Below are positions 45,699-64,000 of a DNA stretch of 64,000 bases, one piece after another. A program made the position numbers and the translations under genes. The notes under the pieces are model-generated. The model worked only from the letters and a program-made list of their open reading frames with translations. It did no database searches and had not been told where the DNA came from. The stretch is taken from NCBI GenBank assembly GCA_051382295.1, contig JBBCAW010000002.1:1-64000 (forward strand). Direction: 5' to 3'. This stretch comes from Bdellovibrionota bacterium FG-1. Lineage in GTDB: Bacteria > Bdellovibrionota > UBA1018. Position 1 is the first letter of the stretch. Every line of letters starts with the position of its first letter.

Positions 45699-45810
45699 GG
45701 ATCCGTGGGGTTTCGTAACCGCATAGGGACAATTCGCTCGGCCGCTTTCGCAAGCGGGTGGAGTGACGGGGTGGTTGACAGCAGTATTCTGTTCGTGTCA
45801 CTATATACAC

Positions 45811-46041
45811 ATGAAACGTACAAATCTTGTGCTTGATGAGGAGCTTCTTAAGACTGCCACCCAAGTACTGGGGGCTAAGACTTATTCGGCGGCGGTTAAT
45901 CAGGCGCTTGCCGAGGCGATACGGACTGCAAAAATCCGGGGGCTTGCTGAATTTTTTGGCACGGGAGTATGGGAAGGCGAGTTATCAGAAATGCGAGAAG
46001 ATCACCCTGTTTCTCGTTCGCGGCCGCGGCGCAAATCATGA
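45811..46041 (+). CDS. vapB: VapB antitoxin
   Basis: MKRTNLVLDEELL...TYSAAVNQAL...WEGELSEMR. Confidence 0.88.
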   Translation: MKRTNLVLDEELLKTATQVLGAKTYSAAVNQALAEAIRTAKIRGLAEFFGTGVWEGELSEMREDHPVSRSRPRRKS

Positions 46042-46427
46042 TTTTGATCGATACGTCCATTTGGATTGATCTGCTTGGTAAATCGCAACGTCATCAAGTC
46101 TCTGCTGAGCGAATGCTCGAGTTTGCCACCTGTTTCCCTGTGATCCAAGAGGTTTTGCAGGGAATCAAAAATGACTTAGCTTTTCACCGAATTAAGGATG
46201 GGTTGATGGCACTTCCCCGCTTGGGTGATCCTTTGAATGCCGAACTTTTTATTGAGGCCTCTGAAATATTTAGATCGGGGAGACGCCGGGGGCTGACCAT
46301 TCGATCCTCAACTGATTGTTTAATTGCGGCAATAGCGATTCATCATCGTTTACCTGTTTGGCATGCGGATCGCGATTTTAGGGCCATTGCTACCTTTACT
46401 AATCTCAGGGAAATATCAAGCTTATGA
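46038..46427 (+). CDS. vapC: VapC PIN toxin (intact)
   Basis: ILIDTSIWID, QEVLQG, STDCLIAA, HADRDF; ATGA overlap with vapB. Confidence 0.92.
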   Translation: MILIDTSIWIDLLGKSQRHQVSAERMLEFATCFPVIQEVLQGIKNDLAFHRIKDGLMALPRLGDPLNAELFIEASEIFRSGRRRGLTIRSSTDCLIAAIAIHHRLPVWHADRDFRAIATFTNLREISSL

Positions 46428-49469: not shown

Positions 49470-49479
49470 AGGGATCTTG

Positions 49480-49806
49480 ATGAAAACGCTCACTGCTATT
49501 CCCGGCATTTCGTCCCTTTATAGCAAGCAAATTTTGGGGCTTTTTTCTGCACTTCCTCAAGGCACCTCGGTGATTCTTTTTGGCTCCCGCGCAAAAGGAA
49601 ATTATAGGGAGGGCTCTGACGTTGATCTGGCTCTTCGTGGCGCCGAAGTCAGCTTTGAGGATCGCGATCGCCTTTTGCAGGAGTATGAAAATTTGAACCT
49701 TCCCTGGAAGTTGGATGTGGTGCTTTACGATCGACTGGAAAATCTCGAGCTCAAAGAGCACATCGATCGAGTGGGGTGCTTGCTGGCTTCGCGAGACAGC
49801 TCCTGA
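49480..49806 (+). CDS. MNT nucleotidyltransferase antitoxin
   Basis: ILFGSRAKGNYREGSDVDLAL, LPWKLDV. Confidence 0.9.
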   Translation: MKTLTAIPGISSLYSKQILGLFSALPQGTSVILFGSRAKGNYREGSDVDLALRGAEVSFEDRDRLLQEYENLNLPWKLDVVLYDRLENLELKEHIDRVGCLLASRDSS

Positions 49807-51296: not shown

Positions 51297-53294
51297 TTAC
51301 GCAACATCCATGTGTGGACCATGGCCTGGCATTCCAGGGCGTGGGCCCATAGGAGGTTGTGGCCTAGGAGCCGGTGGGTTGTACACCGGAGGTTGCGGCC
51401 TCGGAGCGGGTGGGTTGTACACCGGAGGTTGTGGCCTCGGAGCGGGTGGGTTGTACACCGGAGGTTGTGGCCTCGGAGCGGGTGGGTTGTACACCGGAGG
51501 TTGTGGCCTTGGAGCGGGTGGGTTGTACACCGGAGGTTGCGGCCTAGGAGCTGGTGGGTTGTACACCGGAGGTTGCGGCCTCGGAGCGGGTGGGTTGTAC
51601 ACCGGAGGTTGTGGCCTCGGAGCGGGTGGGTTCACCACTGGAGGTTGCGGCCTAGGAGCCGGTGGGTTGTACACCGGAGGTTGTGGCCTTGGAGCCGGTG
51701 GGTTGATCACCGGAGGTTGCGGCCTTGGGCCTGGAACACCAGGTTGGTGAGGAGGCAGTACAACCGGTTGTCCAGGGGTTCCTGCGATAGGCCGATAGAC
51801 TGGGTTATTGGGGTTAGCAACAACGGGGCGCTGCGTGCGCGGTGGCAGAGGTTGATACGTGCCACGCTTCGGATCATAGATTTGCGGAGGAAGCGCTATA
51901 CCCCGACCATCATTTGTGGGAGGGGTGAAGTTTGGTCGTCCACCCGGAATGGTTCCTCCCGATGTGGGGCGAAAAACGGAGCCTACCGGAAAGGCACGAC
52001 CCGAGTTTCCGCCGACAGCATAAGGAAGTCTTGAGAAAGACTCCGGCGCTGGATAAACCCGGACTGGGAAGCGAAGTTCGTGTCCGCCACCGAAAGAACG
52101 AGAGCCCATCGAAGTTGTTGGGTACGCGCCGCAATGGCCATCGACCCAACCGCGGGAGCCGTGCATATCGCTGGCACCGCCGGGATACGCGCCGTATTGG
52201 TTGCGGCCGTAGCCGTTTCTCCAGGCGTTCGTTGCTCTTTCGGCTGCTTCACGTTGTTCGTAAATATTTCGTGCGCCGAAGGCGCCATACCGGACTACGG
52301 TAAAGCCAGGGTAGAAGCCCGCACCGCCATAGTAGCGGCCGGCTTGATAGCCCGCCCAATAACCATCGTTGAAGCCAGCGTCGTAGCCATGGGCATAGCC
52401 TGCGCGGTAGCCGTCGTAGTAGGGGTACCAGCCAATGTAACCACCTTCATCGTGAAACCAAGTGACGCAATGAGGACGATAGCGGAAGTCTTCGAATGCG
52501 CGCCAAATCCAGCCGTAAATCGAGTGATGGCGCCAGATGCCGTAGTGGTCAGTCATCCAACCCCAAGGATCGTTCGATACCCAGGTCCAACCATCGTCGG
52601 TCCAGGCCCAATAGCCGTTTTGGTAAGGCACCCAGTCGGGTTGATACGAGTAGGGTACAAAGTAGCGGATGCCGTTAACAAAAACCCAGCGTCCTTGTCC
52701 GGCTAACGCCGCGTTGGGATCCAGATATCCGCCCTGGTTTTGATATTGGTCGGGTTCGGTGACCACTTCAGTGGGGGGCTGATAATTGCCGCCGCTTTCC
52801 ACGTAAGAGGCATTTCGAAGGATGATGGTATCTGCTACGGCGTTTGAATCCGAATGGGACCTGACCGTGAGGGTGGTCGAAGCGCCTAGGGTATAAGGAA
52901 CATAAAAAGATACACCGTAGTTGTTGACTTCAAAATTCGAAGTGCTCAAACAACTTTGGTTTTGATTTTGAGAGGCATCACATTCGTCTACCCCGCCCTG
53001 TGGGGCAGCGTCATCGGCATACCAGGTAAAATCTTCGACAAAGCGATTTTGTGGGGTGTAAGTGCCGCTGTAGTTATCCGTAAAAAGGTCAGCTGAAAGC
53101 GTGACTACATCTCCCGGACGAACATCTATGACAGATTCGTGGTTGGAGTCATAGGTGCCGTTGACAGACGTGATTCGCACCATATCCGCAAAAGCAGCGG
53201 AAGTACTGAGTGCGGTTGAAAGGAATAAAGCGCTGAGCGGGAGCCATCCTCGCCAGCGTCGGTTTCGATTCGGTATACAGGGTAACATGTGCAT
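51297..53294 (-). CDS. Secreted DUF6600-like Trp/Gly-rich protein with Pro-rich repeat tail
   Basis: WVPYQNGYWAWTDDGWTWVSNDPWGWMTDHYGIW; signal peptide ending AFA. Confidence 0.8.
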   Translation of the reverse strand: MHMLPCIPNRNRRWRGWLPLSALFLSTALSTSAAFADMVRITSVNGTYDSNHESVIDVRPGDVVTLSADLFTDNYSGTYTPQNRFVEDFTWYADDAAPQGGVDECDASQNQNQSCLSTSNFEVNNYGVSFYVPYTLGASTTLTVRSHSDSNAVADTIILRNASYVESGGNYQPPTEVVTEPDQYQNQGGYLDPNAALAGQGRWVFVNGIRYFVPYSYQPDWVPYQNGYWAWTDDGWTWVSNDPWGWMTDHYGIWRHHSIYGWIWRAFEDFRYRPHCVTWFHDEGGYIGWYPYYDGYRAGYAHGYDAGFNDGYWAGYQAGRYYGGAGFYPGFTVVRYGAFGARNIYEQREAAERATNAWRNGYGRNQYGAYPGGASDMHGSRGWVDGHCGAYPTTSMGSRSFGGGHELRFPVRVYPAPESFSRLPYAVGGNSGRAFPVGSVFRPTSGGTIPGGRPNFTPPTNDGRGIALPPQIYDPKRGTYQPLPPRTQRPVVANPNNPVYRPIAGTPGQPVVLPPHQPGVPGPRPQPPVINPPAPRPQPPVYNPPAPRPQPPVVNPPAPRPQPPVYNPPAPRPQPPVYNPPAPRPQPPVYNPPAPRPQPPVYNPPAPRPQPPVYNPPAPRPQPPVYNPPAPRPQPPVYNPPAPRPQPPMGPRPGMPGHGPHMDVA
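51352..51726 (-). repeat. 36-bp coding tandem repeat, 10 full units plus a partial (PQPPVYNPPAPR)
   Basis: Direct reading of the sequence; variation mostly at synonymous positions. Confidence 0.95.
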
Positions 53295-54664: not shown

Positions 54665-55963
54665 TTACTCAAACGAAACTAAATGGTAGTTCTTCTTGCC
54701 CTTGCGCAAAACGAGGTGATTACCAGCTAAGAGATCATCGAGGCCGACCAAGGTGTTGGAGTCCGAGACGCGCTCGTTATTGACGTACACACCTCCCGCC
54801 GTCACATCCTTGCGCGCCTGACCTTTTGAGGGGCAAAGCTGGGTATCCACAAGTAAGTCAATGAGTGGCATCCCTGTATTTAACAGGTCTTTTGATTTTT
54901 TGGTCGAAGGCGCTCCCGCAAGGACGTCGAGTAAAGTCGCTTCGTCCAATTCCCAGATTCCCGTTCCAAAGAGGGCTTGAGTTGCTTTTTCCGCCCGCGC
55001 GAGTTCTTCGGCGCCATGAACAAGGCGAGTCACTTCTTGAGCGAGGGTGGTTTGCGCGAGGCGTTTTGCGGGTTCCGTTTTCAAGGAGTGCTCGATTTCC
55101 GCTAAACGCTCTAACGACAAAAAGGTAAAGAACTTGAGAAATTCCATCACATCCGCATCACTGGCCTGCACAAAAAACTGGTAAAAGCGATAGGGTGAGG
55201 TTTTCTTGGCGTCGAGCCAAACTGTGCCCGATTCCGTTTTTCCAAATTTGGTGCCATCGGCCTTCGAAACCAGCGGATGAGTCAAGCCGAAGGTTTCGGT
55301 GTCTTGCAGGGGTTCTTCACTCGCTGCCCGCATTCGCCGGATCAGCTCAATGCCGGCGGTGATGTTGCCCCATTGATCCGAACCGCCAATTTGAAGTTTG
55401 CAGCCTTGATTCTTCTGAAGAAAATAAAAATCATAGGCTTGCAAAAGCATGTAAGAAAACTCGGTGTAAGAAATTCCGTGTTCTCGGTCTTCCAGTCTGG
55501 CGCGCACCGATTCCTTGGCCATCATATGATTGACCGTAAAATGTTTGCCGATGTCTCTTAAAAATTCGATGAATGAAAAACCCTTGAACCATTCCCCATT
55601 ATTGACCACCACGGCGGCGTTGGGGCCTTTAAAATCCAAGAAGCGCTCGATGGTCGAGCGAATGCCGGCAAGATTGTGCGCGATTTGGGCGTCGTTCAAC
55701 AGATTGCGCTCTTGCGATTTACCACTGGGGTCACCAATCATCCCTGTCGCCCCACCCACGACGGCGATCGGGCGATGGCCCGCGAGCTGAAATCTTCGCA
55801 ACGTCAAGAGCGGCAGCAGGCTTCCGACGTGAAGAGAATCCGAGGTCGGGTCAAACCCACAATAGAGGGAGAGTGGCTTGCTTTCTAAAATGGAGCCGAG
55901 TTCGGGAGAGGTGACTTGTTTGACAATGCCTCGGGCTTCGAGGTCTTCAAAAAGAGTAGGCAT
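54665..55963 (-). CDS. tyrS: Tyrosine-tRNA ligase
   Basis: YCGFDPTSDSLHVG, QIGGSDQWGNI, KFGKT, S4 domain. Confidence 0.99.
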   Translation of the reverse strand: MPTLFEDLEARGIVKQVTSPELGSILESKPLSLYCGFDPTSDSLHVGSLLPLLTLRRFQLAGHRPIAVVGGATGMIGDPSGKSQERNLLNDAQIAHNLAGIRSTIERFLDFKGPNAAVVVNNGEWFKGFSFIEFLRDIGKHFTVNHMMAKESVRARLEDREHGISYTEFSYMLLQAYDFYFLQKNQGCKLQIGGSDQWGNITAGIELIRRMRAASEEPLQDTETFGLTHPLVSKADGTKFGKTESGTVWLDAKKTSPYRFYQFFVQASDADVMEFLKFFTFLSLERLAEIEHSLKTEPAKRLAQTTLAQEVTRLVHGAEELARAEKATQALFGTGIWELDEATLLDVLAGAPSTKKSKDLLNTGMPLIDLLVDTQLCPSKGQARKDVTAGGVYVNNERVSDSNTLVGLDDLLAGNHLVLRKGKKNYHLVSFE

Positions 55964-55964
55964 G

Positions 55965-57284
55965 CTATTTTCCCCTTTTGCGCATAATCAGGTGATAGGC
56001 TTCGCCATAATCTCCCTGGATAGATCCTTCGTTAACATGAATGTAATGAACAAAACAGGCCGAGATCACGAGCTGTCCCGTCCAAAGAGCACCTAAGAGC
56101 CATTTTGCCGCTTGAGTGTATCCGGCTAGACTCTGTTGACTATTCAATGCGAGTCGGGCCAGCCATACAAATTCGAGCGGAAAAGCGACCAAAATATAAT
56201 AGCGCCGAATATTTACCGTCGAAAGAGTCAGTAACAAACCGAAGCCCCAAATCGCGGAAATCAGGGCTAAATCTAGATTGCTTTTTGGCATGAGTTCCGC
56301 GCGAGAACGGTTCTTGATGCGGCGAAAAAGAGCGGGCAGTAAAAGCGCGGCTCCCGTCCCGAGGACCACAAGGTGAGCTACCGCATTGAGATACGTCGGT
56401 ACGCCACCGATCAAAGGGTATCGCACAAAATCCGAGATTTGCGCCCAGGTTGTTTGTCCCCGAAGCAGGCCGAGTGGATTGCCCAAGTGAAGCCCCAAAG
56501 GATTGGTGACCCAAAAAACCCAGAACTTGGCCTGAATCGCTTCGACCCAACCCCGGCCTACCGACTCCGGCGTGGGATGTTGAATGATCTGGGCCAGCCA
56601 AGGAATCAACGGCAACGCTCCCAGAATAGAACCTGCGAGCCATCCCGTCCACCGCACACGGGTCCGAGGTAACTCAGCGAGCGAAAAAATCAAAGTGCAA
56701 AGCACAAATCCCGCGGCATAAAAAAATCCGCTCATATGAATTTGCCCCAGCCAGGCCCCTACAAAACCCCAAATAAAAGCGCCCATCCAACGGTCTCGAA
56801 GCCACCAGCCGGCTAACATTAACATCGAAAATACCGGCAAAAAAGGCTCAGGCCAGAGTTTCCGCTGATAAAAAACGGCAAAAGGATTGACGAGCGCTAG
56901 CGCCATGGCCCATAGCCAAGGAGTACGGTCTTCGCGGGGCTTGAGAATTTTGAGAGCAAAGGGGAGTAAAAGGCAAATTCCGAGCAAAGCAAAAAGCTGT
57001 AAAGCGTGCGCGAGTTGCGTCGGCTGAGTGGCGCCGCTGAGACGCGCAAGCGCTTTAAAAACCCAGACACTCATTCCAGGGTTCGGAACGTAAACACCTG
57101 AAGGCATGCCCACCCAAGACCAGTCAGCGAGTTGGCTTTGCGTAAAGTCAAATTCCTCGTCTTCCTTATATTCCATGTCATCGGCATTGAGAACTCGGAG
57201 CAAGCACCCGGCAATCATCGAAAATATCAAAAACCATTTCCAATTTTTGGACAGATACGAGGTCGCGGGTTCTGGGAGTTTCAT
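55965..57284 (-). CDS. GT-C fold membrane glycosyltransferase (ArnT/PMT-like)
   Basis: First-loop YKEDE acidic motif; RKLW.P; QIHMS; many transmembrane segments. Confidence 0.7.
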   Translation of the reverse strand: MKLPEPATSYLSKNWKWFLIFSMIAGCLLRVLNADDMEYKEDEEFDFTQSQLADWSWVGMPSGVYVPNPGMSVWVFKALARLSGATQPTQLAHALQLFALLGICLLLPFALKILKPREDRTPWLWAMALALVNPFAVFYQRKLWPEPFLPVFSMLMLAGWWLRDRWMGAFIWGFVGAWLGQIHMSGFFYAAGFVLCTLIFSLAELPRTRVRWTGWLAGSILGALPLIPWLAQIIQHPTPESVGRGWVEAIQAKFWVFWVTNPLGLHLGNPLGLLRGQTTWAQISDFVRYPLIGGVPTYLNAVAHLVVLGTGAALLLPALFRRIKNRSRAELMPKSNLDLALISAIWGFGLLLTLSTVNIRRYYILVAFPLEFVWLARLALNSQQSLAGYTQAAKWLLGALWTGQLVISACFVHYIHVNEGSIQGDYGEAYHLIMRKRGK

Positions 57285-60124
57285 CGCACCTCCAACATTC
57301 GAAGCGCGCGAAATTCGGTGACTCGGCCACTGGTATAGGAATCCGGAATTTGAAATTCAGGCAGATCATCGGTGAGTGCGGGATGGACAATGACTTCGGC
57401 GGCGGGGTTTCTTCCCATCCGTGCGCGAAGAAATCCCGGGTCATGAAAATCCCGCATCTGAGGATAAAAACAGGGGAGGGGCAGCCAGTGATGGCGTTTG
57501 ATCACGGGCTTTGCCCAATACGAAAGCAGGATCAGCGCAGGTTTGGAAAACCAGAGACCGCGATCCAGCGGTAGGCGAACCTGTTGGACCCCGGCTTGTT
57601 GGATCTGGGAAGCCAGCGCCGCCAAAAGGCCGGGAATCAGATGAATATGGTGATGTCCATCGAGGTAGCGAGGGCAAACTCCGGCTTCGTTTAAAATTTG
57701 GAGTTGGTCGGCTAATTCCGCTTTCGCAGTTTTCAGGAACTCCTGGCGCCGAAGGCCAGGAAGGAGGGCTTGAATTAAAACTTTTCCAGGGGACCTTTTT
57801 GCATAGGTCAGATCAAAGTGAAGTCCGAGCTCAACCCCTGGGATGGTTTGAAGCTCCGCCAAGCCCTCTTTCAAAAACCGTGAATGGGCCATGAGTGAAA
57901 CTCGTCGGACGATTCCCAGGTGGGCCAGTTGTAAAATTCCTTGGTTCACGCCTGGTGTTAAGCCCCAATCATCGGCGGTGATGGCCTGCGAAAAAGGTTG
58001 GGGATGGTAATAGCCCTTACGGAAACGCAGGGCCAAAAGAGGAAGCCCGCGGAAGATATCCCAAATTTCGCCGCCAATTCGGCCAGGCGTTTTTTCTTGC
58101 GCCAAAAAAAGCTGCAATGGCAGATCCTCTTGTTTGAAACCAAAAGCACCTGCAATCAACCAGGCTTCTAATTCAAATAAAAATCCTGAAAATCGTTGCA
58201 ATGCAAAGACCTGGGTTGCGGCGCCCCGATCCATCATCCAAATTCCGGAATGGGTATCGGTGGTTTGAATCGGCAAAGTGAGACGAACCAAACGGTTAAA
58301 AGCTAATCCCATTCGATGTCGGCCATAGACCAGTGAAAGGTGTCGTACGGGAATTCTAAAACGAGTATCCCCCAAGCGCCGGTTGGCTCGCACGATGCGG
58401 ACTTTCTCTTTGCAAATGGTGTTTAAGGCTCGCTCATAAAAATCCAAGCCGCAGGGCTGTTCAATGTTCAGTGATGCAATGAATTCACCGTGGCTTGCCA
58501 AAAACCCATCTCGCAGAGCGGCCCCTCGCGCGGATACTTGAGGGGCCAAAAGGACTTGAAGGGTCTTGCCGGGGGCGCTCAGGCGGTTTTGAAGGAGAGT
58601 GAGTTTTTCCCACAATGGGTCTGATTCTGAAGATCCCCTCGTGCCAAAGGGAATAACCAAAATTTCGAAAGGGATGTTTTTTGAGCAAAAATACGCGTGG
58701 GTTTCTTCGAGTAGGCGCGTGACCCAAGAGCTTTCTAGGTTCGATTCGAGTTGCCGAGGAAGGGGCAAAAGCACGGACAGGGTGCCCGACTGTGCAGGGC
58801 GGGGCATCGCAGGCCAAGGGCTGAGTGAATGCACTGGGATCTGAGGTATTTTACGAAATTTGGGCGAAAGCCTTGCTCTGGAATGCATCCAGGCCTGTCT
58901 GAAAACGGCGGCCCCTAAAAAACACGTGGCAACCAGTGGGATGGAAGCCCTCTGAAGTGCAAAAAAGATCGTGGGCCCGACGACATCGAGGCCGGGAAGG
59001 GAAAGGGTGAGAAAGCCAAACAGCAGGGCGATGTTTTCAAAATGTCCGCGCTTAGGGCAGGCAAAAAGCAGGGCGACGGGAATGGCCATCGTGGTCAGTG
59101 AATATTTAAAGGTCTCCGGCATGAACCATAAATAGGGAAATACGCCCAGCGCGAAAAACAGGCCTTTTCCTAGGGGGTTTCGGGCACGTCTGAAAAACCA
59201 GAAGCTCAGAATGGCCAAACAGCCGAGGGCTACGCTACTGACATAGATCGGACTGACCGCATCTGAGTTGAGCCAACCCCATTTCACGGCACGGAGAAGG
59301 GCGCTTTTAATCGACTGACTGCCATAATGAGAGGCATCGTAGTAGACGGAGTCATTCAAGACGATTTCGAACCAACCGCGCCAAAGCATGATTAAGCGTT
59401 CAGTCGATCCGAGCCAAACTCCCAAAACTCCCGTTGCGACCACAAGCCAGGCCAGGGGCGCCAAAATAGCGCGCGCTCGTTGGACCGGGCGCGGATGATT
59501 GACAAATAACGTGTATAAAAATCCAGGACCGATTTTGAATACCGCAGGAATCAACAGTGCCGAGCCCGCCCAAGCAGCGCGTCCACGCATCCATCCGTAA
59601 AGTGCCCAACAGTAGCTCATGAACAAAAGACTGGAGCTTTGCCCAATGGTGAGGCAATCCAGGCAAAATCGCAGAATAAAGAAAAAAGCGGCCACCGAGA
59701 TCCAAAAGGTTTGGGTGGGGGTTTCACCCTTGCCGTGTCCTTTGCGAGTCAGACGCAGGGCCTGATGGATGCCCATAAAACCAAGGGCAAACCACAGAAG
59801 TTGTAAAAAATACCAGATCATCCGTGCATCAGGAAGTGAGAGTGCGGCAAAGGGCCTAAAGAGGATTAAAAGGGGCGGGGCATACCGAAAGGGCGAAGCG
59901 CCATCTCCGAGATTATAGATGAGTTCCCACAAGCCTTGTTTGGCTCGGGAAGCCGCGCGGTAATAGACTTCAAAGTCCGTGTAATCCGACTTGAGTTGAA
60001 CTTTATAGGCATAAAGCGGAACGATGATCAGTAGGGCGATGAGGGCAAGCCACCCTAACCCTCGGTTGAGGCGACGAATACTTTTTGCGGAGAGATTGCG
60101 GGGGACGGCCACGGTGCGATTCAT
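57281..60124 (-). CDS. Fusion of GT87-like membrane glycosyltransferase, degenerate GT2 and YdjC/ChbG deacetylase
   Basis: DFEVYYRA, FRYAPP, GQ, K; GT2-like middle domain; TADDWG, GLHFDLT, DGHHHIH, EVIVHP. Confidence 0.85.
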   Translation of the reverse strand: MNRTVAVPRNLSAKSIRRLNRGLGWLALIALLIIVPLYAYKVQLKSDYTDFEVYYRAASRAKQGLWELIYNLGDGASPFRYAPPLLILFRPFAALSLPDARMIWYFLQLLWFALGFMGIHQALRLTRKGHGKGETPTQTFWISVAAFFFILRFCLDCLTIGQSSSLLFMSYCWALYGWMRGRAAWAGSALLIPAVFKIGPGFLYTLFVNHPRPVQRARAILAPLAWLVVATGVLGVWLGSTERLIMLWRGWFEIVLNDSVYYDASHYGSQSIKSALLRAVKWGWLNSDAVSPIYVSSVALGCLAILSFWFFRRARNPLGKGLFFALGVFPYLWFMPETFKYSLTTMAIPVALLFACPKRGHFENIALLFGFLTLSLPGLDVVGPTIFFALQRASIPLVATCFLGAAVFRQAWMHSRARLSPKFRKIPQIPVHSLSPWPAMPRPAQSGTLSVLLPLPRQLESNLESSWVTRLLEETHAYFCSKNIPFEILVIPFGTRGSSESDPLWEKLTLLQNRLSAPGKTLQVLLAPQVSARGAALRDGFLASHGEFIASLNIEQPCGLDFYERALNTICKEKVRIVRANRRLGDTRFRIPVRHLSLVYGRHRMGLAFNRLVRLTLPIQTTDTHSGIWMMDRGAATQVFALQRFSGFLFELEAWLIAGAFGFKQEDLPLQLFLAQEKTPGRIGGEIWDIFRGLPLLALRFRKGYYHPQPFSQAITADDWGLTPGVNQGILQLAHLGIVRRVSLMAHSRFLKEGLAELQTIPGVELGLHFDLTYAKRSPGKVLIQALLPGLRRQEFLKTAKAELADQLQILNEAGVCPRYLDGHHHIHLIPGLLAALASQIQQAGVQQVRLPLDRGLWFSKPALILLSYWAKPVIKRHHWLPLPCFYPQMRDFHDPGFLRARMGRNPAAEVIVHPALTDDLPEFQIPDSYTSGRVTEFRALRMLEVR

Positions 60125-61689
60125 GTGAGGTGCGGTTTACGACAAATATACAGGATATCAGCAAACAAGAAATGGCTACATTTTCTGGATTGGACGCTAA
60201 ATCCTTTTTTTCGAAGGGAGCCTTCCCATTGGTTTTGGGAACGAAACTGAAGCTCCGTTTTCTTTTCAGAGCGGGTAAACCCCGTTGCCGTCGCTAATTT
60301 TTCGTAAGCGCGGTTGAACGTCGAGGTCGCTCCTTGCTCGGGGTTAACCTCCCGGACAATCAACGTCCCGCCGGGCTCAAGCAAATCAAAGGCCTGGGTA
60401 AAAAGGCGTTCCTGTTCTGCATAAGGAAAATAATGCATGACATCAATCATGGAAATGCCCGCAACACTTCCAGGTTTGACCCCGATTCCCGTTTGTCCGG
60501 GGTCACTGAGGGTTCCTTGCGAGTAGTTGAGATTTGTTACGGCTTGGCCGGCGTTTTGGGCAAGATGGATTCGGTCGGCGTCATGATCGAGTCCTAGGAC
60601 CGTTCTGTTGGGGGCATTGAGCGCTAAGGCCAGTGAAAATAAACCGTGACCGCAGCCCAAATCGAGAACGACTCCTTGAGACGGAAGGTGGGCGGCCATT
60701 TTCAAATAGGGCGTCAAACGCCAGCGGGCTTCTAAAAAAAATCGAGTGCCAAGCGGGGTTTTTGGATAACGGCTCAGAATTTGCGAAGGACGAAAAGAGA
60801 TCAAACCGGGCCCGTAAGCTTTTTTGAAGACATTACGGAAGGTGATTCGGGTCAGCCAAAAAGCGGCCAGAATGCTTTCGCGAATGACTCGAACGGTGCT
60901 TTTTTCAGAGTTGAGATGAAGAACCACGGGCAGTTCCATGTGGCGATAGCCCAAGCCGGCGGCGGCGAGAAAAAACTCCAGATCAAAAAAAAAGCCCGGA
61001 CAAACTTGGCGCTCAAAGCCCGCGCAAGCCAAGCGGCGGGACATGGCCTTGAGTCCGGCTTGCGTATCCGTGGTATGGATCGGAAAAAGCCATTGGACAA
61101 CGCGATTAAAGGCCAAGCCCAGGCGGTGTCGTTTGTAAGCTAAAGGAAGTAAGCCCACCGGAATATCAAAAATACTCGTTTTGAGCCTGCGATTACCGGT
61201 GACGAGGTCTGCGCCTTCCCGAAGTTCGCGGGCGGCGACATCAAAAAAATCCAGGTCATAAGGAAGGTCAGCGTCCGTAAAAAAAACCAGTCGACCGCGG
61301 GAGCTTTTAAAACCCGTTCGAAGGGCCGCGCCCTTTCCTTGCGGAAGACGATGAATACTCACCCGAACATGATCGAATTTTCGGGCAAGCTCTTGTGAAA
61401 CTTCAATGGATCGATCGGGTTGCGAACCTGGCTTTTGATAAACCGGAGGGTTGGGGATGAGGATAATCTCAAAGGAGTCGCCAAAAGTATGGGTCAAAAA
61501 CCGCGAGGCCACTGAAACGGTTTCAGCCAGGGAGTCGGCTGCGCCCCGGGCCGGAATCAGCAAAGAAACCTCAAGCGACGGCGTGGGATGCTCTAATTCA
61601 CCCAGTGCACCGAGCGCGCGCATTTCGGCCCAGAGGGGAGGCTGTTTTGCGTGAGTGGGCAACGGATTAGATTGAGCGAGTGGCGTCAT
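60121..61689 (-). CDS. Fusion of polyprenyl-phosphate sugar synthase-like GT2 and class I SAM methyltransferase
   Basis: GKGAALRTG, FTDADLPY, DTQAGLK, FFFDLE; VLDLGCGHG, IDVMHY, LEPGGTL. Confidence 0.88.
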   Translation of the reverse strand: MTPLAQSNPLPTHAKQPPLWAEMRALGALGELEHPTPSLEVSLLIPARGAADSLAETVSVASRFLTHTFGDSFEIILIPNPPVYQKPGSQPDRSIEVSQELARKFDHVRVSIHRLPQGKGAALRTGFKSSRGRLVFFTDADLPYDLDFFDVAARELREGADLVTGNRRLKTSIFDIPVGLLPLAYKRHRLGLAFNRVVQWLFPIHTTDTQAGLKAMSRRLACAGFERQVCPGFFFDLEFFLAAAGLGYRHMELPVVLHLNSEKSTVRVIRESILAAFWLTRITFRNVFKKAYGPGLISFRPSQILSRYPKTPLGTRFFLEARWRLTPYLKMAAHLPSQGVVLDLGCGHGLFSLALALNAPNRTVLGLDHDADRIHLAQNAGQAVTNLNYSQGTLSDPGQTGIGVKPGSVAGISMIDVMHYFPYAEQERLFTQAFDLLEPGGTLIVREVNPEQGATSTFNRAYEKLATATGFTRSEKKTELQFRSQNQWEGSLRKKGFSVQSRKCSHFLFADILYICRKPHLT

Positions 61690-62761
61690 CCACTTGAGCC
61701 TCAAATTGCGAAAGCATCTCAAAAATGAGTTCAGCGTCCGCTACGCTTTGAAGCGCAAGTCCGCAGGCGGGGGTATAAAGAGCTTGTTTCAGGACTTTTC
61801 GCACCAGATCCTGATCCGCGCCAAATGCACTTTTGAGGTCGCCGATGAGGGCCTGCACCAGAGCTCCGACATCCAGCGAACGAAGGATTCCGGGGCGTCC
61901 AGTAGGAATCACACCTAGGGCCAAACGGCCGTCACTTTCGATAAAACGACGCAAACCCGGACCACAGGCCAAAAGACTCCCGAGAGAAAGCGAAACATCG
62001 ATGGACAGATAATTTAAAGGGAGCGCAAGAACCGCGTTCCAATCCGTGTTGCTGCAACAATGAAGTCCAACTAAGACGCCCTCTTTGCGGAGTGCCTGAA
62101 TCATGACTTTAAGTTCTTGAAGTGCCATGACGTGGCGAGGATTGGAGGGTGAAAAACCGTAGAGTCCCGGTTCATCGAGAAAAAGAAGCGGCTGCGCCCC
62201 TTGTTCCTTAATTCGGGCTGACATGGCTAGGGCTCGAGCCATGACGAGTCGAAAAATTTGAGTCGAAAGTTCAGGGTTTTTTTCGCCAAAGGCTAAAGCA
62301 GAAATCGATTTCCCAGAGCTATCATGAAGTTGTAAAACCCATTGGGAAGTCATGGGTCCGGCAATTTGCATTTTAGCGATGGGGGTTTCACGTTCTGCAA
62401 GCTCCCAAATGAAAGGCTGCCAACAACTCGAAATCGAGGGCGTGGGTTCAAAAAGGGAGAGGGCCGACAAGGGAGTCGAGGACGCTCCACCCCGAAACGC
62501 GGATTCGAGTTTAGCGTTAAAATCCGAGGTGCGCGAGAACCAGATATCCGTGTTTAACGTGACTGAACCGTCTTTGCCTGCTTGCAAGCCTGGCAAGCCT
62601 TCCAGGGCTTGGGCGATCATGTATTCCCAGGGGTTGCGAATCGGAATTTGGGGCAGGTAGGGAATTCCAAATCGAAAGGAGTGTTCCAATGCCGCATCGA
62701 CATTGTGATGCGGAAGACTGCCAATGCCCGTGGTCCAAGGGCGTTTATCGATTGTCGTCAT
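61667..62761 (-). CDS. Single-barrel core methionine synthase-like protein (MetE C-terminal fold)
   Basis: TGIGSLPH, PQIP.R...EYM, K.QIAGP.T, LDEP, GLHCC, TPACGL. Confidence 0.8.
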   Translation of the reverse strand: MTTIDKRPWTTGIGSLPHHNVDAALEHSFRFGIPYLPQIPIRNPWEYMIAQALEGLPGLQAGKDGSVTLNTDIWFSRTSDFNAKLESAFRGGASSTPLSALSLFEPTPSISSCWQPFIWELAERETPIAKMQIAGPMTSQWVLQLHDSSGKSISALAFGEKNPELSTQIFRLVMARALAMSARIKEQGAQPLLFLDEPGLYGFSPSNPRHVMALQELKVMIQALRKEGVLVGLHCCSNTDWNAVLALPLNYLSIDVSLSLGSLLACGPGLRRFIESDGRLALGVIPTGRPGILRSLDVGALVQALIGDLKSAFGADQDLVRKVLKQALYTPACGLALQSVADAELIFEMLSQFEAQVDDATRSI

Positions 62762-64000
62762 CTAAGCCTCCGCGTTGTGAGCCCGTTGAACCCACTGAAA
62801 AGTAGGAGGCTTGGGGATGATGGAACACGAGCGCCGAAACGCTTGATTCAGGATCCATCATAAAGCCATCCGTCAGATTGACTCCAATTTCATCTGGGTT
62901 CAAGAGCTTCCAAAGTAAGGCCTGGTCGTCTAATCGGGGACAAGCAGGGTAGCCAAATGAATAACGCTTTCCTTGGTATTTGGCTTGAAATCGATCCATC
63001 ATCGTCATTTCGGGGGTATCCGGATAGCCCCACATTCTTCGAAGCTGGGAGTGCAGCCATTCCGCGTAAGCTTCGGCGGATTCCAGGGCGAGCGCCTGAA
63101 TAATATGGGATTTGAGATAATCTCCCCAGTTTTTCAGATTTTCGGAGAGTTCGCGAACCCCTTTACCGACGCTCACGACAAAAAACGCGACGTTATCCTG
63201 AAGGTCAGCGGGGTTTGGAATTTGGCCCGGCTGCGCGACTGGAAGAGTGTAATCTGAAAGGCAAAGCCCATCGACCTTTTGCTGGCGTGGAAACTCAAAA
63301 GTCACGGGCAGGCATTTTTCTTGGGAGTGCGGGAAAACCAAGAGCCGAGAGCCATCGGCCGCTGCTTTGAAAAAGCGGTAAACGGCCGACGGTCTCAGTA
63401 CGTCGGTGCCTTTATACTCGTCTTTGACCTCTTGAACAGCCTTCCAAATCGCTAGGGATTTTGGGTCCTGCTCCTCAAGTTCGGCCCGAATTTTTTGATC
63501 TGTGACGGCGGCTTCGAGTTTGCGCACCACGCCCCCTTTGATCCCTAGGTGGCGTCCATAAAGCATGAGGGGATTGATAAATTTCCAAACAGGCTCAATC
63601 GGGCTGTTTCGCAAAATATGTCGTTCGAAATCGGGGGGAGCGGGGATTTCACGTTCCGTCAGTAACGCTAAAGTACTGGGGCGGCGATCGGGCTCAGCCG
63701 TTACCGCCACTCGTGCGGTGGGTACTTTGGCCTTCGAGGCGGCTCGTCTGGTCGCGAGTTCTTCTTTGAATTTTGAAAAGCGCTCGGGATCCACGATGGT
63801 TTTTGCCAAATCTAAGCCCGACATGGCATCGGAGGCATAGGCCACTGTTCCGGAGTAGGCTCGGGCAATTTGATTATCCACAAAATTGCTCGAAAGTGCG
63901 GCCCCACCCACCATCATGGGGGTCTGAACTCCGGCGCGAGTAAAGTCTTCGGCCGTGGTGACCATTTGATGAGCCGATTTGACGAGCAGGCCTGAAAGAC
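62745..64000 (-). CDS. metH: Cobalamin-dependent methionine synthase, 3' part (B12-binding and activation domains)
   Basis: SGLLVKS..QM, MVGGAAL, YASDA, AEAYAEWLH, RYSFGYPACP, PESSVSA. Confidence 0.96.
   Translation of the reverse strand, partial: LSGLLVKSAHQMVTTAEDFTRAGVQTPMMVGGAALSSNFVDNQIARAYSGTVAYASDAMSGLDLAKTIVDPERFSKFKEELATRRAASKAKVPTARVAVTAEPDRRPSTLALLTEREIPAPPDFERHILRNSPIEPVWKFINPLMLYGRHLGIKGGVVRKLEAAVTDQKIRAELEEQDPKSLAIWKAVQEVKDEYKGTDVLRPSAVYRFFKAAADGSRLLVFPHSQEKCLPVTFEFPRQQKVDGLCLSDYTLPVAQPGQIPNPADLQDNVAFFVVSVGKGVRELSENLKNWGDYLKSHIIQALALESAEAYAEWLHSQLRRMWGYPDTPEMTMMDRFQAKYQGKRYSFGYPACPRLDDQALLWKLLNPDEIGVNLTDGFMMDPESSVSALVFHHPQASYFSVGSTGSQRGGLDDDNR

Follow-up and report, generated by a model that had tools for sequence, protein, structure and literature searches.

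Three of the six genes at positions 54,665-64,000 of the window, the 64,000-nucleotide stretch analysed here (uncultured Bdellovibrionota bacterium FG-1, GCA_051382295.1, JBBCAW010000002.1, positions 1-64,000), point to an envelope-glycosylation pathway that works through a lipid carrier. In this pathway a polyprenyl phosphate-linked N-acetylhexosamine would be made, deacetylated, methylated (probably on nitrogen), and passed by a GT87 enzyme and/or a second GT-C enzyme to an envelope acceptor. The probability of this reading is put at roughly 0.55. The gene order and the tight junctions described in an earlier note on this DNA are real, and its domain calls hold up in a Pfam/domain scan (Table 1). 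The four-activity module appears to have entered an operon, metH-mesB-like-tyrS-metF, that already existed when the ancestor of a single Bdellovibrionota family acquired it.

Table 1. Genes and domains of the locus, with positions in the window.
Feature	Position	Strand	Details
tyrS, tyrosine-tRNA ligase; host operon	54665..55963	-	TIGR00234 E 8.5e-121
Second GT-C, 439 aa, accessory	55965..57284	-	ArnT/ALG12/PMT-like fold, no Pfam family
YdjC/ChbG-type deacetylase domain of the 947-aa protein, residues ~714-944	57293..57985	-	PF04794 E 1.6e-31
Pseudo-GT2 domain of the 947-aa protein, residues ~445-706	58007..58792	-	DxD lost
GT87 (PimE-fold GT-C) domain of the 947-aa protein, residues ~20-415	58880..60067	-	PF09594 E 2e-13
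GT2 (polyprenyl-phosphate glycosyltransferase type) + class I SAM methyltransferase fusion	60121..61689	-	522 aa, ATG at 61689
MesB-like core methionine-synthase homologue, 364 aa; host operon, outside the glyco module	61667..62761	-	Zn set H234, C236, D255, C333
metH 3' part, cobalamin-dependent methionine synthase; host operon	62745..64000	-	TIGR02082, PF02965

The combination of a GT2, a YdjC deacetylase and a GT-C acting through a lipid carrier, proposed in the earlier note, is supported by the domain calls and by intact catalytic residues. The 522-aa protein contains a GT2 (PF00535, E 2.9e-11) and a methyltransferase (PF13489, E 1.2e-13) by Pfam. The top glycosyltransferase matches of this GT2 in the PDB are the polyprenyl-phosphate glycosyltransferases GtrB, DPMS and ArnC, and its DxD (D139/D141) is invariant in 28/28 orthologues. 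The YdjC domain of the 947-aa protein scores above the PF04794 cut-off, has ChbG (7vi8) as its top match both by sequence and by fold, and retains the whole metal site (D718, D719, H769, D822, H824, H826 and H914, invariant in 83/83). The GT87 domain scores 51.1 bits against PF09594 (gathering score 25) and matches PimE (9dm5) with a Foldseek target TM-score of 0.70; its catalytic Asp, D50 in the DFxVY loop (first outer loop), is invariant in 83/83. The 439-aa protein, predicted with an AF2 pLDDT of 83, also has GT-C enzymes as its fold matches, so that the two different GT-C enzymes claimed earlier, one of GT87/PimE fold and one of ArnT/ALG12/PMT-like fold, are borne out. Its residues D36, E38, E41, D42 and E43 are invariant in 16/16, and it is present at the locus in 19 of the 24 assessable relatives. 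PDB sequence searches with its alignment and with that of the MesB-like protein gave nothing useful.

The earlier note was right to call GT87, GT2 and YdjC domains in the 947-aa protein but overlooked that the GT2 among them is, judged by its sequence, a pseudoenzyme and catalytically dead. The DxD is intact in 0/83 orthologues, the commonest replacements being NxE (18), QxE (17), HxE (16) and RxE (12), and the GKG-lysine and the TQ-glutamine are missing as well. The C-terminal acceptor/membrane half is kept: when the 65 columns conserved in the active GT2 are compared, the N-half retains 8/22 and the C-half 29/43. The pseudo-GT2 sequences form one clade (SH-aLRT 99 in a quick tree) among the active GT2s of the family, and the domain arose by duplication from a GT2-MT-YdjC ancestor. 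Single chains of this GT2-methyltransferase-YdjC type (725-730 aa, DxD intact) are encoded in three genomes of another family, in one of them with GT87 directly upstream. The most likely role of the dead copy is to pair with the active GT2 or to retain the lipid product. In that case the synthase, the methylase, the deacetylase and GT87 would constitute one putative two-chain complex, which would have replaced the ancestral single chain.

That the methyltransferase is part of the glyco module is shown by its fusions with GT2, YdjC or GT87, which come in several permutations, and by its co-occurrence with the other components; this bears out the earlier proposal that it acts in the pathway. In the 26 relatives, GT2 and methyltransferase are fused in 17 and encoded by two adjacent genes in 6; the methyltransferase is absent from the locus in the remaining 3. 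Among 30 long methyltransferase relatives, picked by length from the 150 matches listed, Pfam finds GT2+MT+YdjC (4), MT+YdjC (5), GT2+MT (10) and GT87+MT (1). One additional 1105-aa protein (P0244) carries GT2-MT-YdjC and a hydrophobic C-terminal domain of ~370 aa that looks GT-C-like by eye; it was not counted as a GT-C fusion, since that domain has no Pfam family at E 0.1. Forty metagenome loci of at least 5 kb each, selected on the methyltransferase alone and including some near-duplicates, contain GT2 in 32, YdjC in 30 and both in 29. PMT_2-type GT-Cs lie beside the triad in 7 of the distant loci scanned and in one further genome (G110). Related modules occur in metagenome loci of Woesebacteria, Anaerolineae and Elusimicrobia. 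The module is phylum-spanning and not clade-specific, a spread that the earlier note missed. The Woesebacteria and Anaerolineae (Patescibacteria, Chloroflexi) are not known to make lipid A. The methyltransferase family, which is unannotated, comprises 1230 proteins at E <= 1e-30. No paper on a GT2-YdjC-methyltransferase module or on an inactive polyprenyl-phosphate GT2 was found in the literature searched, which included few subscription journals.

The pathway is envisaged as follows. The active GT2 would move N-acetylhexosamine onto polyprenyl phosphate at the cytoplasmic face, the likely donor being UDP-HexNAc because the partner enzyme is a YdjC protein. The YdjC domain, with its active site intact, would strip the acetyl group from this lipid-linked sugar, a substrate suggested by that of NaxD. 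The SAM methyltransferase would methylate the lipid-linked sugar, most simply at the amine that deacetylation exposes, in the way that NodS follows NodB. A flippase would turn the product across the membrane, and GT87, plus the second GT-C where present, would hand the sugar to an envelope acceptor; for this last step the folds of both enzymes are in hand. GtrA was rejected as the flippase, its distribution not tracking the module: it was not found in four module-bearing genomes that are 92-95% complete (G009, G228, G016 and G036), whereas some genomes that lack a strong match to the module do have it. In this genome an AUR1/PAP2-like gene precedes GtrA, an arrangement seen in only 3/20 other GtrA loci.

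The closest known counterparts are lipid A amino-sugar systems, with which the module shares a polyprenyl-phosphate-type GT2 with DxD and a YdjC domain with intact metal site; lpxC and lpxK score above cut-off in this genome, indicating that the host makes lipid A. The Francisella FlmF2/NaxD/FlmK system (NaxD is also found in Acinetobacter) likewise has a DPM-synthase-like GT2, a YdjC-family deacetylase and a GT-C working through a polyprenyl-phosphate carrier (PMC2233673, PMC11279074); there, FlmF/FlmK are the precedent for the polyprenyl-phosphate-carried sugar (PMC2233673) and NaxD acts on undecaprenyl-P-GalNAc (PMC11279074). The module described here differs in having a SAM methyltransferase of its own, a GT2 copy that is dead and a second GT-C that is unclassified, and in fusing several domains into one protein; it uses GT87, not solely an ArnT-type enzyme, and lipid A is only a candidate acceptor. 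In Bordetella, LgmA is a GT2 and LgmC a YdjC protein. All three of LgmA, LgmB and LgmC are required for glucosamine on the lipid A phosphates, as stated in PMC4993483 and PMC11401268; this three-enzyme set is alike by description in its GT2/YdjC/transferase make-up, but it consists of separate proteins with one transferase, and the descriptions cited include no methylation step.

The order of a GT2, a deacetylase and then a SAM methyltransferase on the freed amine also has a parallel in rhizobial NodC/NodB/NodS, although NodB is a CE4 enzyme and not YdjC. NodS methylates deacetylated chito-oligomers (PMC11681206); unlike the module here, the Nod system makes soluble chito-oligomers and has neither a GT-C nor a lipid carrier. 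A further proposal, which goes beyond the pathway itself and is offered tentatively, is that the dead GT2 docks deacetylase and GT87 onto the active GT2-methyltransferase in a two-chain membrane complex. The product of such a complex would be an N-methyl (or N,N-dimethyl/trimethyl) hexosamine linked to polyprenyl phosphate, which would then be attached to a surface molecule, and the same chemistry would extend to many phyla, some of them lacking lipid A. No description of such an N-methyl hexosamine donor on polyprenyl phosphate was found in the literature searched.

The strongest competing explanation keeps the carrier pathway but has the methyltransferase act elsewhere, by O-methylation of the sugar or on the lipid or another small molecule, so that deacetylation and methylation are parallel decorations. 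We regard it as unlikely. The alignment of the methyltransferase with its closest solved relatives is confined to the SAM-binding core, and both N- and O-methyltransferases are among them, the latter including UbiG, DnrK and RebM-type enzymes. In more distant members of the family the methyltransferase is joined to MMPL-acyltransferase proteins that have neither GT2 nor YdjC. The three relatives without the methyltransferase at the locus, and one in which it is degenerate (G002), also count against the pathway as drawn. Set against these points, fusions of the MT-YdjC and GT2-MT-YdjC types turn up repeatedly, and 30/40 loci have YdjC close to the methyltransferase, a pattern that fits a methyltransferase substrate produced by the deacetylase. 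The best characterised matches are phosphoethanolamine N-methyltransferases, a weak hint in the same direction, and NodS is among the weak core matches (E 1.7e-9).

Somewhat less probable still is that the deacetylated (and methylated) glycolipid is the acceptor or end product rather than the donor, as in GPI/PIM-like or HpnI/HpnK-like pathways, with the GT-Cs extending it with hexoses from other polyprenyl-P donors. In such a scheme the GT2 would glycosylate a membrane lipid, and YdjC and the methyltransferase would mature the product. The PimE fold of GT87 fits, since PimE extends a glycolipid, and the presence of two GT-Cs would allow two sugars to be added. The GT87 enzymes characterised so far take polyprenyl-P-mannose as donor, for alpha-1,2 mannosylation. 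GT87 orthologues persist in three genomes in which YdjC was not found (G024, G008 and G018), which argues that GT87 can use another donor and may not take the module sugar, a point against the pathway preferred here. In G024, GT87 and the second GT-C stay together, which implies that the acceptor of both is not the YdjC product. The closest solved relatives of the GT2 also speak for a polyprenyl-phosphate product. Hopanoid synthesis pairs a GT2, HpnI, with a YdjC deacetylase, HpnK; in favour of such a scheme, this genome has a triterpene cyclase (best match tetrahymanol synthase, below cut-off) and the YdjC domain gives a weak score against the HpnK model. That score is only 46.8 bits (cut-off 232.6), however, no hpn genes lie at the locus, and a cyclase is present in only 5/21 module-bearing relatives; a hopanoid or tetrahymanol was rejected as a general acceptor on this distribution.

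The earlier note also tied the module functionally to methionine synthesis. Such a tie, through methyl supply or recycling by MetH and the MesB-like enzyme, has very little left in its favour, being largely refuted by genomes that carry the module unlinked to the met genes or without metH. It would be favoured by linkage and by translational coupling along the gene row, which suggests a single transcript; the met genes and the module may be co-transcribed. A metH or mesB-like gene lies directly upstream of the module in 19/26 relatives, with metF downstream of the locus in 10 family genomes. These 19, however, are all kin of one family in which tyrS is linked equally, so that the synteny holds within the family and is absent wherever module or met genes sit outside it. 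The module is unlinked in the other 7/26, and in three of these (G005, G025 and G028) metH was not found, so that the module outlasts loss of the met genes. In three genomes of family f18 the module and the met pair are both present but lie apart, and metH is present in only 3 of the 40 metagenome loci, all of the family's type. Conversely, the mesB-like gene adjoins metH in 28/30 loci across the phylum. Outside the family it abuts metH in 17/18 loci, with no GT2 or methyltransferase within 1.5 kb in the 17 that have downstream sequence. In one genome of the order (G046) metH-mesB-tyrS-metF are contiguous, with tyrS placed immediately between the mesB-like gene and metF. A search of the window and 11 loci for regulatory RNAs gave only tRNAs and one Moco riboswitch, and no riboswitch for SAM or cobalamin; a scan for promoter-like sites (2 observed, 6.0 expected) and terminator-like sites (23 observed, 16.2 expected) was uninformative. 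The tie looks positional, the met genes being neighbours by descent that the module does not need.

The MesB-like protein poses a separate puzzle. Its S15, D196, H234, C236, D255 and C333 are invariant, and the H-x-C, D, C zinc set and the Ser/Asp homocysteine residues have near-identical spacing to those of MesB (positions in PMC7857596); Meth_synt_2 is detected in 5/16 orthologues. MesB is reported only with the Wood-Ljungdahl corrinoid protein, whereas here the gene abuts a complete metH, which runs on to position 66341 of the contig (full ORF 1198 aa). The Wood-Ljungdahl corrinoid Fe-S protein (AcsC/AcsD; CdhD, PF03599) was found in 0/5 genomes that are 90-98% complete. These bacteria, which lack the Wood-Ljungdahl pathway, thus combine an intact MesB-like enzyme with a complete MetH to which it is coupled.

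The analysis removes the supposed link of the module to methionine synthesis. Amino sugars delivered by polyprenyl phosphate set the charge of the envelope, and with it the way in which the cell interacts with phages, predators and cationic peptides. With a methyltransferase of its own, that route would gain a new building block, and a large family that lacks annotation would acquire a function. In the pseudo-GT2 there would be a clear case of a dead polyprenyl-phosphate glycosyltransferase retained as a scaffold. The natural single-chain GT2-MT-YdjC proteins make it possible to follow the first three steps in vitro on a single polypeptide. If the N-methyl hexosamine reading is true, the use of the same chemistry in many phyla, some of which have no lipid A, would imply an unrecognised, permanently cationic surface modification with acceptors other than LPS.

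The families, folds and catalytic residues of the module (the GT2-methyltransferase, the 947-aa GT87-pseudo-GT2-YdjC protein and the second, 439-aa GT-C) are established, as is one dead domain; GT2, YdjC, methyltransferase (MT) and GT-C are inherited together. Strong matches to the 947-aa protein are restricted to the window's family, 30 of whose 36 genomes have some match; in other genomes of the order weak matches occur in 3/24 (best E 2.7e-7). Twenty-six relatives carry the GT2/YdjC part with upstream DNA that can be read (G015 and G022, on short contigs, were dropped and GT87-only genomes are uncounted): 17 encode GT2 and MT as one protein, 6 as neighbouring genes, and 3 have no MT at the locus. 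Of the 24 relatives that could be assessed for it, 19 have the 439-aa GT-C at the same locus. Counting against a tidy pathway, GT87 orthologues are retained in G024, G008 and G018, where no YdjC was found, and this genome has two more GT87 genes. Two loci, L058 (G024) and L062 (G011:C20), read metH-mesB-like-GT87-(GT-C)-tyrS and lack GT2, MT and YdjC there, which reflects either genes lost secondarily or an insertion at an earlier stage.

The two GT2 domains are paralogues (35% identity). The DxD motif is present in 28/28 sequences of the MT-fused GT2 and in 0/83 GT2 domains of the 947-aa protein (from 103 matches, 20 partial or odd-length ones being left out), where the site reads NxE, QxE, HxE or RxE. 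Across the 65 columns with conservation of 90% or more in the active GT2, the pseudo-GT2 retained 8/22 in the nucleotide-binding half and 29/43 in the C-terminal half; the NRR motif, RH, D623, E653 and K678 are among the retained residues. We infer that catalysis has been lost and that selection persists for lipid binding or a subunit interface. The YdjC metal site and the first-loop Asp of GT87 are both invariant (83/83 orthologues). The GT87 domain is basic at its two ends (6 and 5 K/R, no D/E), which suggests that pseudo-GT2 and YdjC lie on the cytoplasmic side.

A quick midpoint-rooted ML tree was built from 66 GT2 domains. In it the pseudo-GT2 copies form a single clade (SH-aLRT 99) nested among the family's active GT2s (84-89), and the GT2-MT-YdjC single chains branch earlier. 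This topology fits one duplication, by which an ancestral GT2-MT-YdjC would have given GT2-MT plus pseudo-GT2-YdjC, with fusion to GT87 afterwards. An active GT2-YdjC adjoins GT87 in G001, and pseudo-GT2-YdjC is a free protein in G016.

Fusions and shared loci place the MT, METHYLTRANSFERASE, within the module. Across 251 genomes sampled from the phylum it was found in 16/27 family relatives and five genomes of other families. Three of these five have it as the central part of a GT2-MT-YdjC chain of 725-730 aa with intact DxD, in one case with a GT87 immediately upstream; the fourth has it within the run YdjC, GT2, MT, PMT_2. Pfam scanning (E <= 1e-6) of 30 longer MT relatives, chosen by length among the 150 listed, gave GT2+MT+YdjC (4), MT+YdjC (5), GT2+MT (10), GT87+MT (1) and MT+B12 radical SAM (1). 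A metagenome scan selected on MT alone kept 80/237 loci; the 40 of at least 5 kb carry GT2 in 32, YdjC in 30, both in 29 and metH in 3, counts that include several near-duplicates and are not independent. PMT_2 GT-Cs occur at 7 loci (58 neighbour ORFs scanned). Named members of the MT family come from Ca. Woesebacteria, Elusimicrobia, Anaerolineae, Omnitrophota, Vicinamibacteria, Hyphomicrobiales and Aureabacteria, and a Woesebacteria locus (L213) has MT, PMT_2 and GT2-YdjC together. The CPR and Chloroflexota groups among these are not known to make lipid A. Further afield, relatives of the MT are joined to MMPL-acyltransferases, and the module is absent.

Variants of the arrangement were also seen. 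P0244 (1105 aa) joins GT2-MT-YdjC in one chain to a hydrophobic C-terminal domain of no Pfam family, and may hold the entire pathway. P0267 has its MT joined to a B12 radical SAM domain, and in Elusimicrobia the triad has as neighbours a gene for a B12-dependent radical SAM protein and one for a PMT_2 transferase; both make additional tailoring of the same sugar likely.

The earlier note had tied the module to methionine synthesis. The linkage is conserved inside the family, metH or the mesB-like gene lying directly upstream of the module in 19/26 relatives, and co-transcription is likely because the genes overlap. A functional tie is unsupported: the mesB-like gene abuts metH in 28/30 loci phylum-wide (the remaining two at contig edges), the pair occurs without the module, and the module lacks met neighbours in 7 relatives. 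GT2 or MT lies within 1.5 kb at 0/17 non-family mesB-like loci with downstream sequence. In G046 (another family, same order) metH, mesB-like, tyrS and metF are contiguous, and metF is still downstream in 10 family genomes; thus the module appears to sit inside an older met-tyrS operon. metH was not found in module-bearing G005 (5 contigs, 92% complete), G028 (94%) and G025 (89%), and is elsewhere in the genome in G006 and G001. In G005, G006 and G028 the module is still flanked by genes that look, when their translations are read by eye, like the upstream neighbours of metH in G046/G036, which suggests that deletion removed the met genes from around it. In G149, G177 and G195 the met pair and the GT2-MT-YdjC triple fusion are at separate loci. 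Neither a SAM nor a cobalamin riboswitch turned up in the window or in the 11 loci scanned; one relative has a Moco/tungsten riboswitch upstream of metH, on the opposite strand. On this genomic evidence the met link looks positional.

The 364-aa mesB-like product has the MesB catalytic residues, with zinc and homocysteine residues intact. It falls outside the Wood-Ljungdahl criterion of MesB given in PMC7857596, and CdhD was found in 0/5 genomes checked. The enzyme may use methyl groups from the MetH cobalamin domain for another thiol. Its arrangement with metH, whose 3' end it overlaps, does not fit MesB as defined in the literature and makes a lead of its own. Elsewhere in the window, a 665-aa secreted-looking protein finishes with roughly twelve near-perfect PAPRPQPPVYNP-type repeats, while an antitoxin-like and PIN-domain-like gene pair and a nucleotidyltransferase-like ORF, their translations read by eye, look like ordinary toxin-antitoxin genes.

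Coordinates of features in the window and at other loci
Feature	Location	Strand
Small antitoxin-like + PIN-domain-like gene pair	window 45763-46427	+
Minimal nucleotidyltransferase-like ORF	window 49477-49806	+
665-aa secreted-looking protein	window 51297-53294	-
mesB-like gene	window 61667-62761	
metH (complete)	window 62745-64000, on to C2:66341	
Moco/tungsten riboswitch	L032:4426-4657	opposite
GtrA-type flippase and PAP2_3 gene	L068 (G000:C59:5526-8858)	
Elusimicrobia triad	L177:1950-7454	
Triterpene cyclase	L243:10440-12326 (G000:C122)	

The cited papers describe NaxD, of the YdjC family, as deacetylating undecaprenyl-P-GalNAc prior to lipid A transfer (PMC11279074), the DPM-like FlmF1/F2 as making donors and FlmK as the transferase (PMC2233673), lgmA-C as required for Bordetella lipid A glucosamine (PMC4993483, PMC11401268), and deacetylated chito-oligomers as the substrates of NodS methylation (PMC11681206). 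The module would work like FlmF2/NaxD/FlmK and LgmABC, whose GT2 and YdjC features it has; it is not filed with either, their defining lipid A product being only putative here. Tests for HpnK were negative. Polyprenyl-P-HexNAc would be converted on the lipid carrier to HexN and then N-methyl-HexN; after flipping of the lipid, GT87 and/or the second GT-C would pass the sugar on. Its acceptor may be lipid A or core, since this genome has lpxC and lpxK.

This genome also has a triterpene cyclase near adenosylhomocysteinase (best match tetrahymanol synthase, 474.6 bits, cut-off 500); such cyclases are found in 5/21 module-bearing relatives and patchily across the family (12/36). GtrA was rejected as the module flippase, as its presence does not track the module. 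At L068 a GtrA gene directly follows a PAP2_3 (AUR1/inositol-phosphoceramide-synthase-like) gene, a pairing that recurs in 3/20 other GtrA loci and suggests a separate glycolipid route.

Neither a GT2-YdjC-MT module nor an inactive polyprenyl-phosphate GT2 was found described in the literature, covered thinly for subscription journals. The dead-GT2 scaffold and the sugar methylation step are proposed as the two new parts of the pathway.
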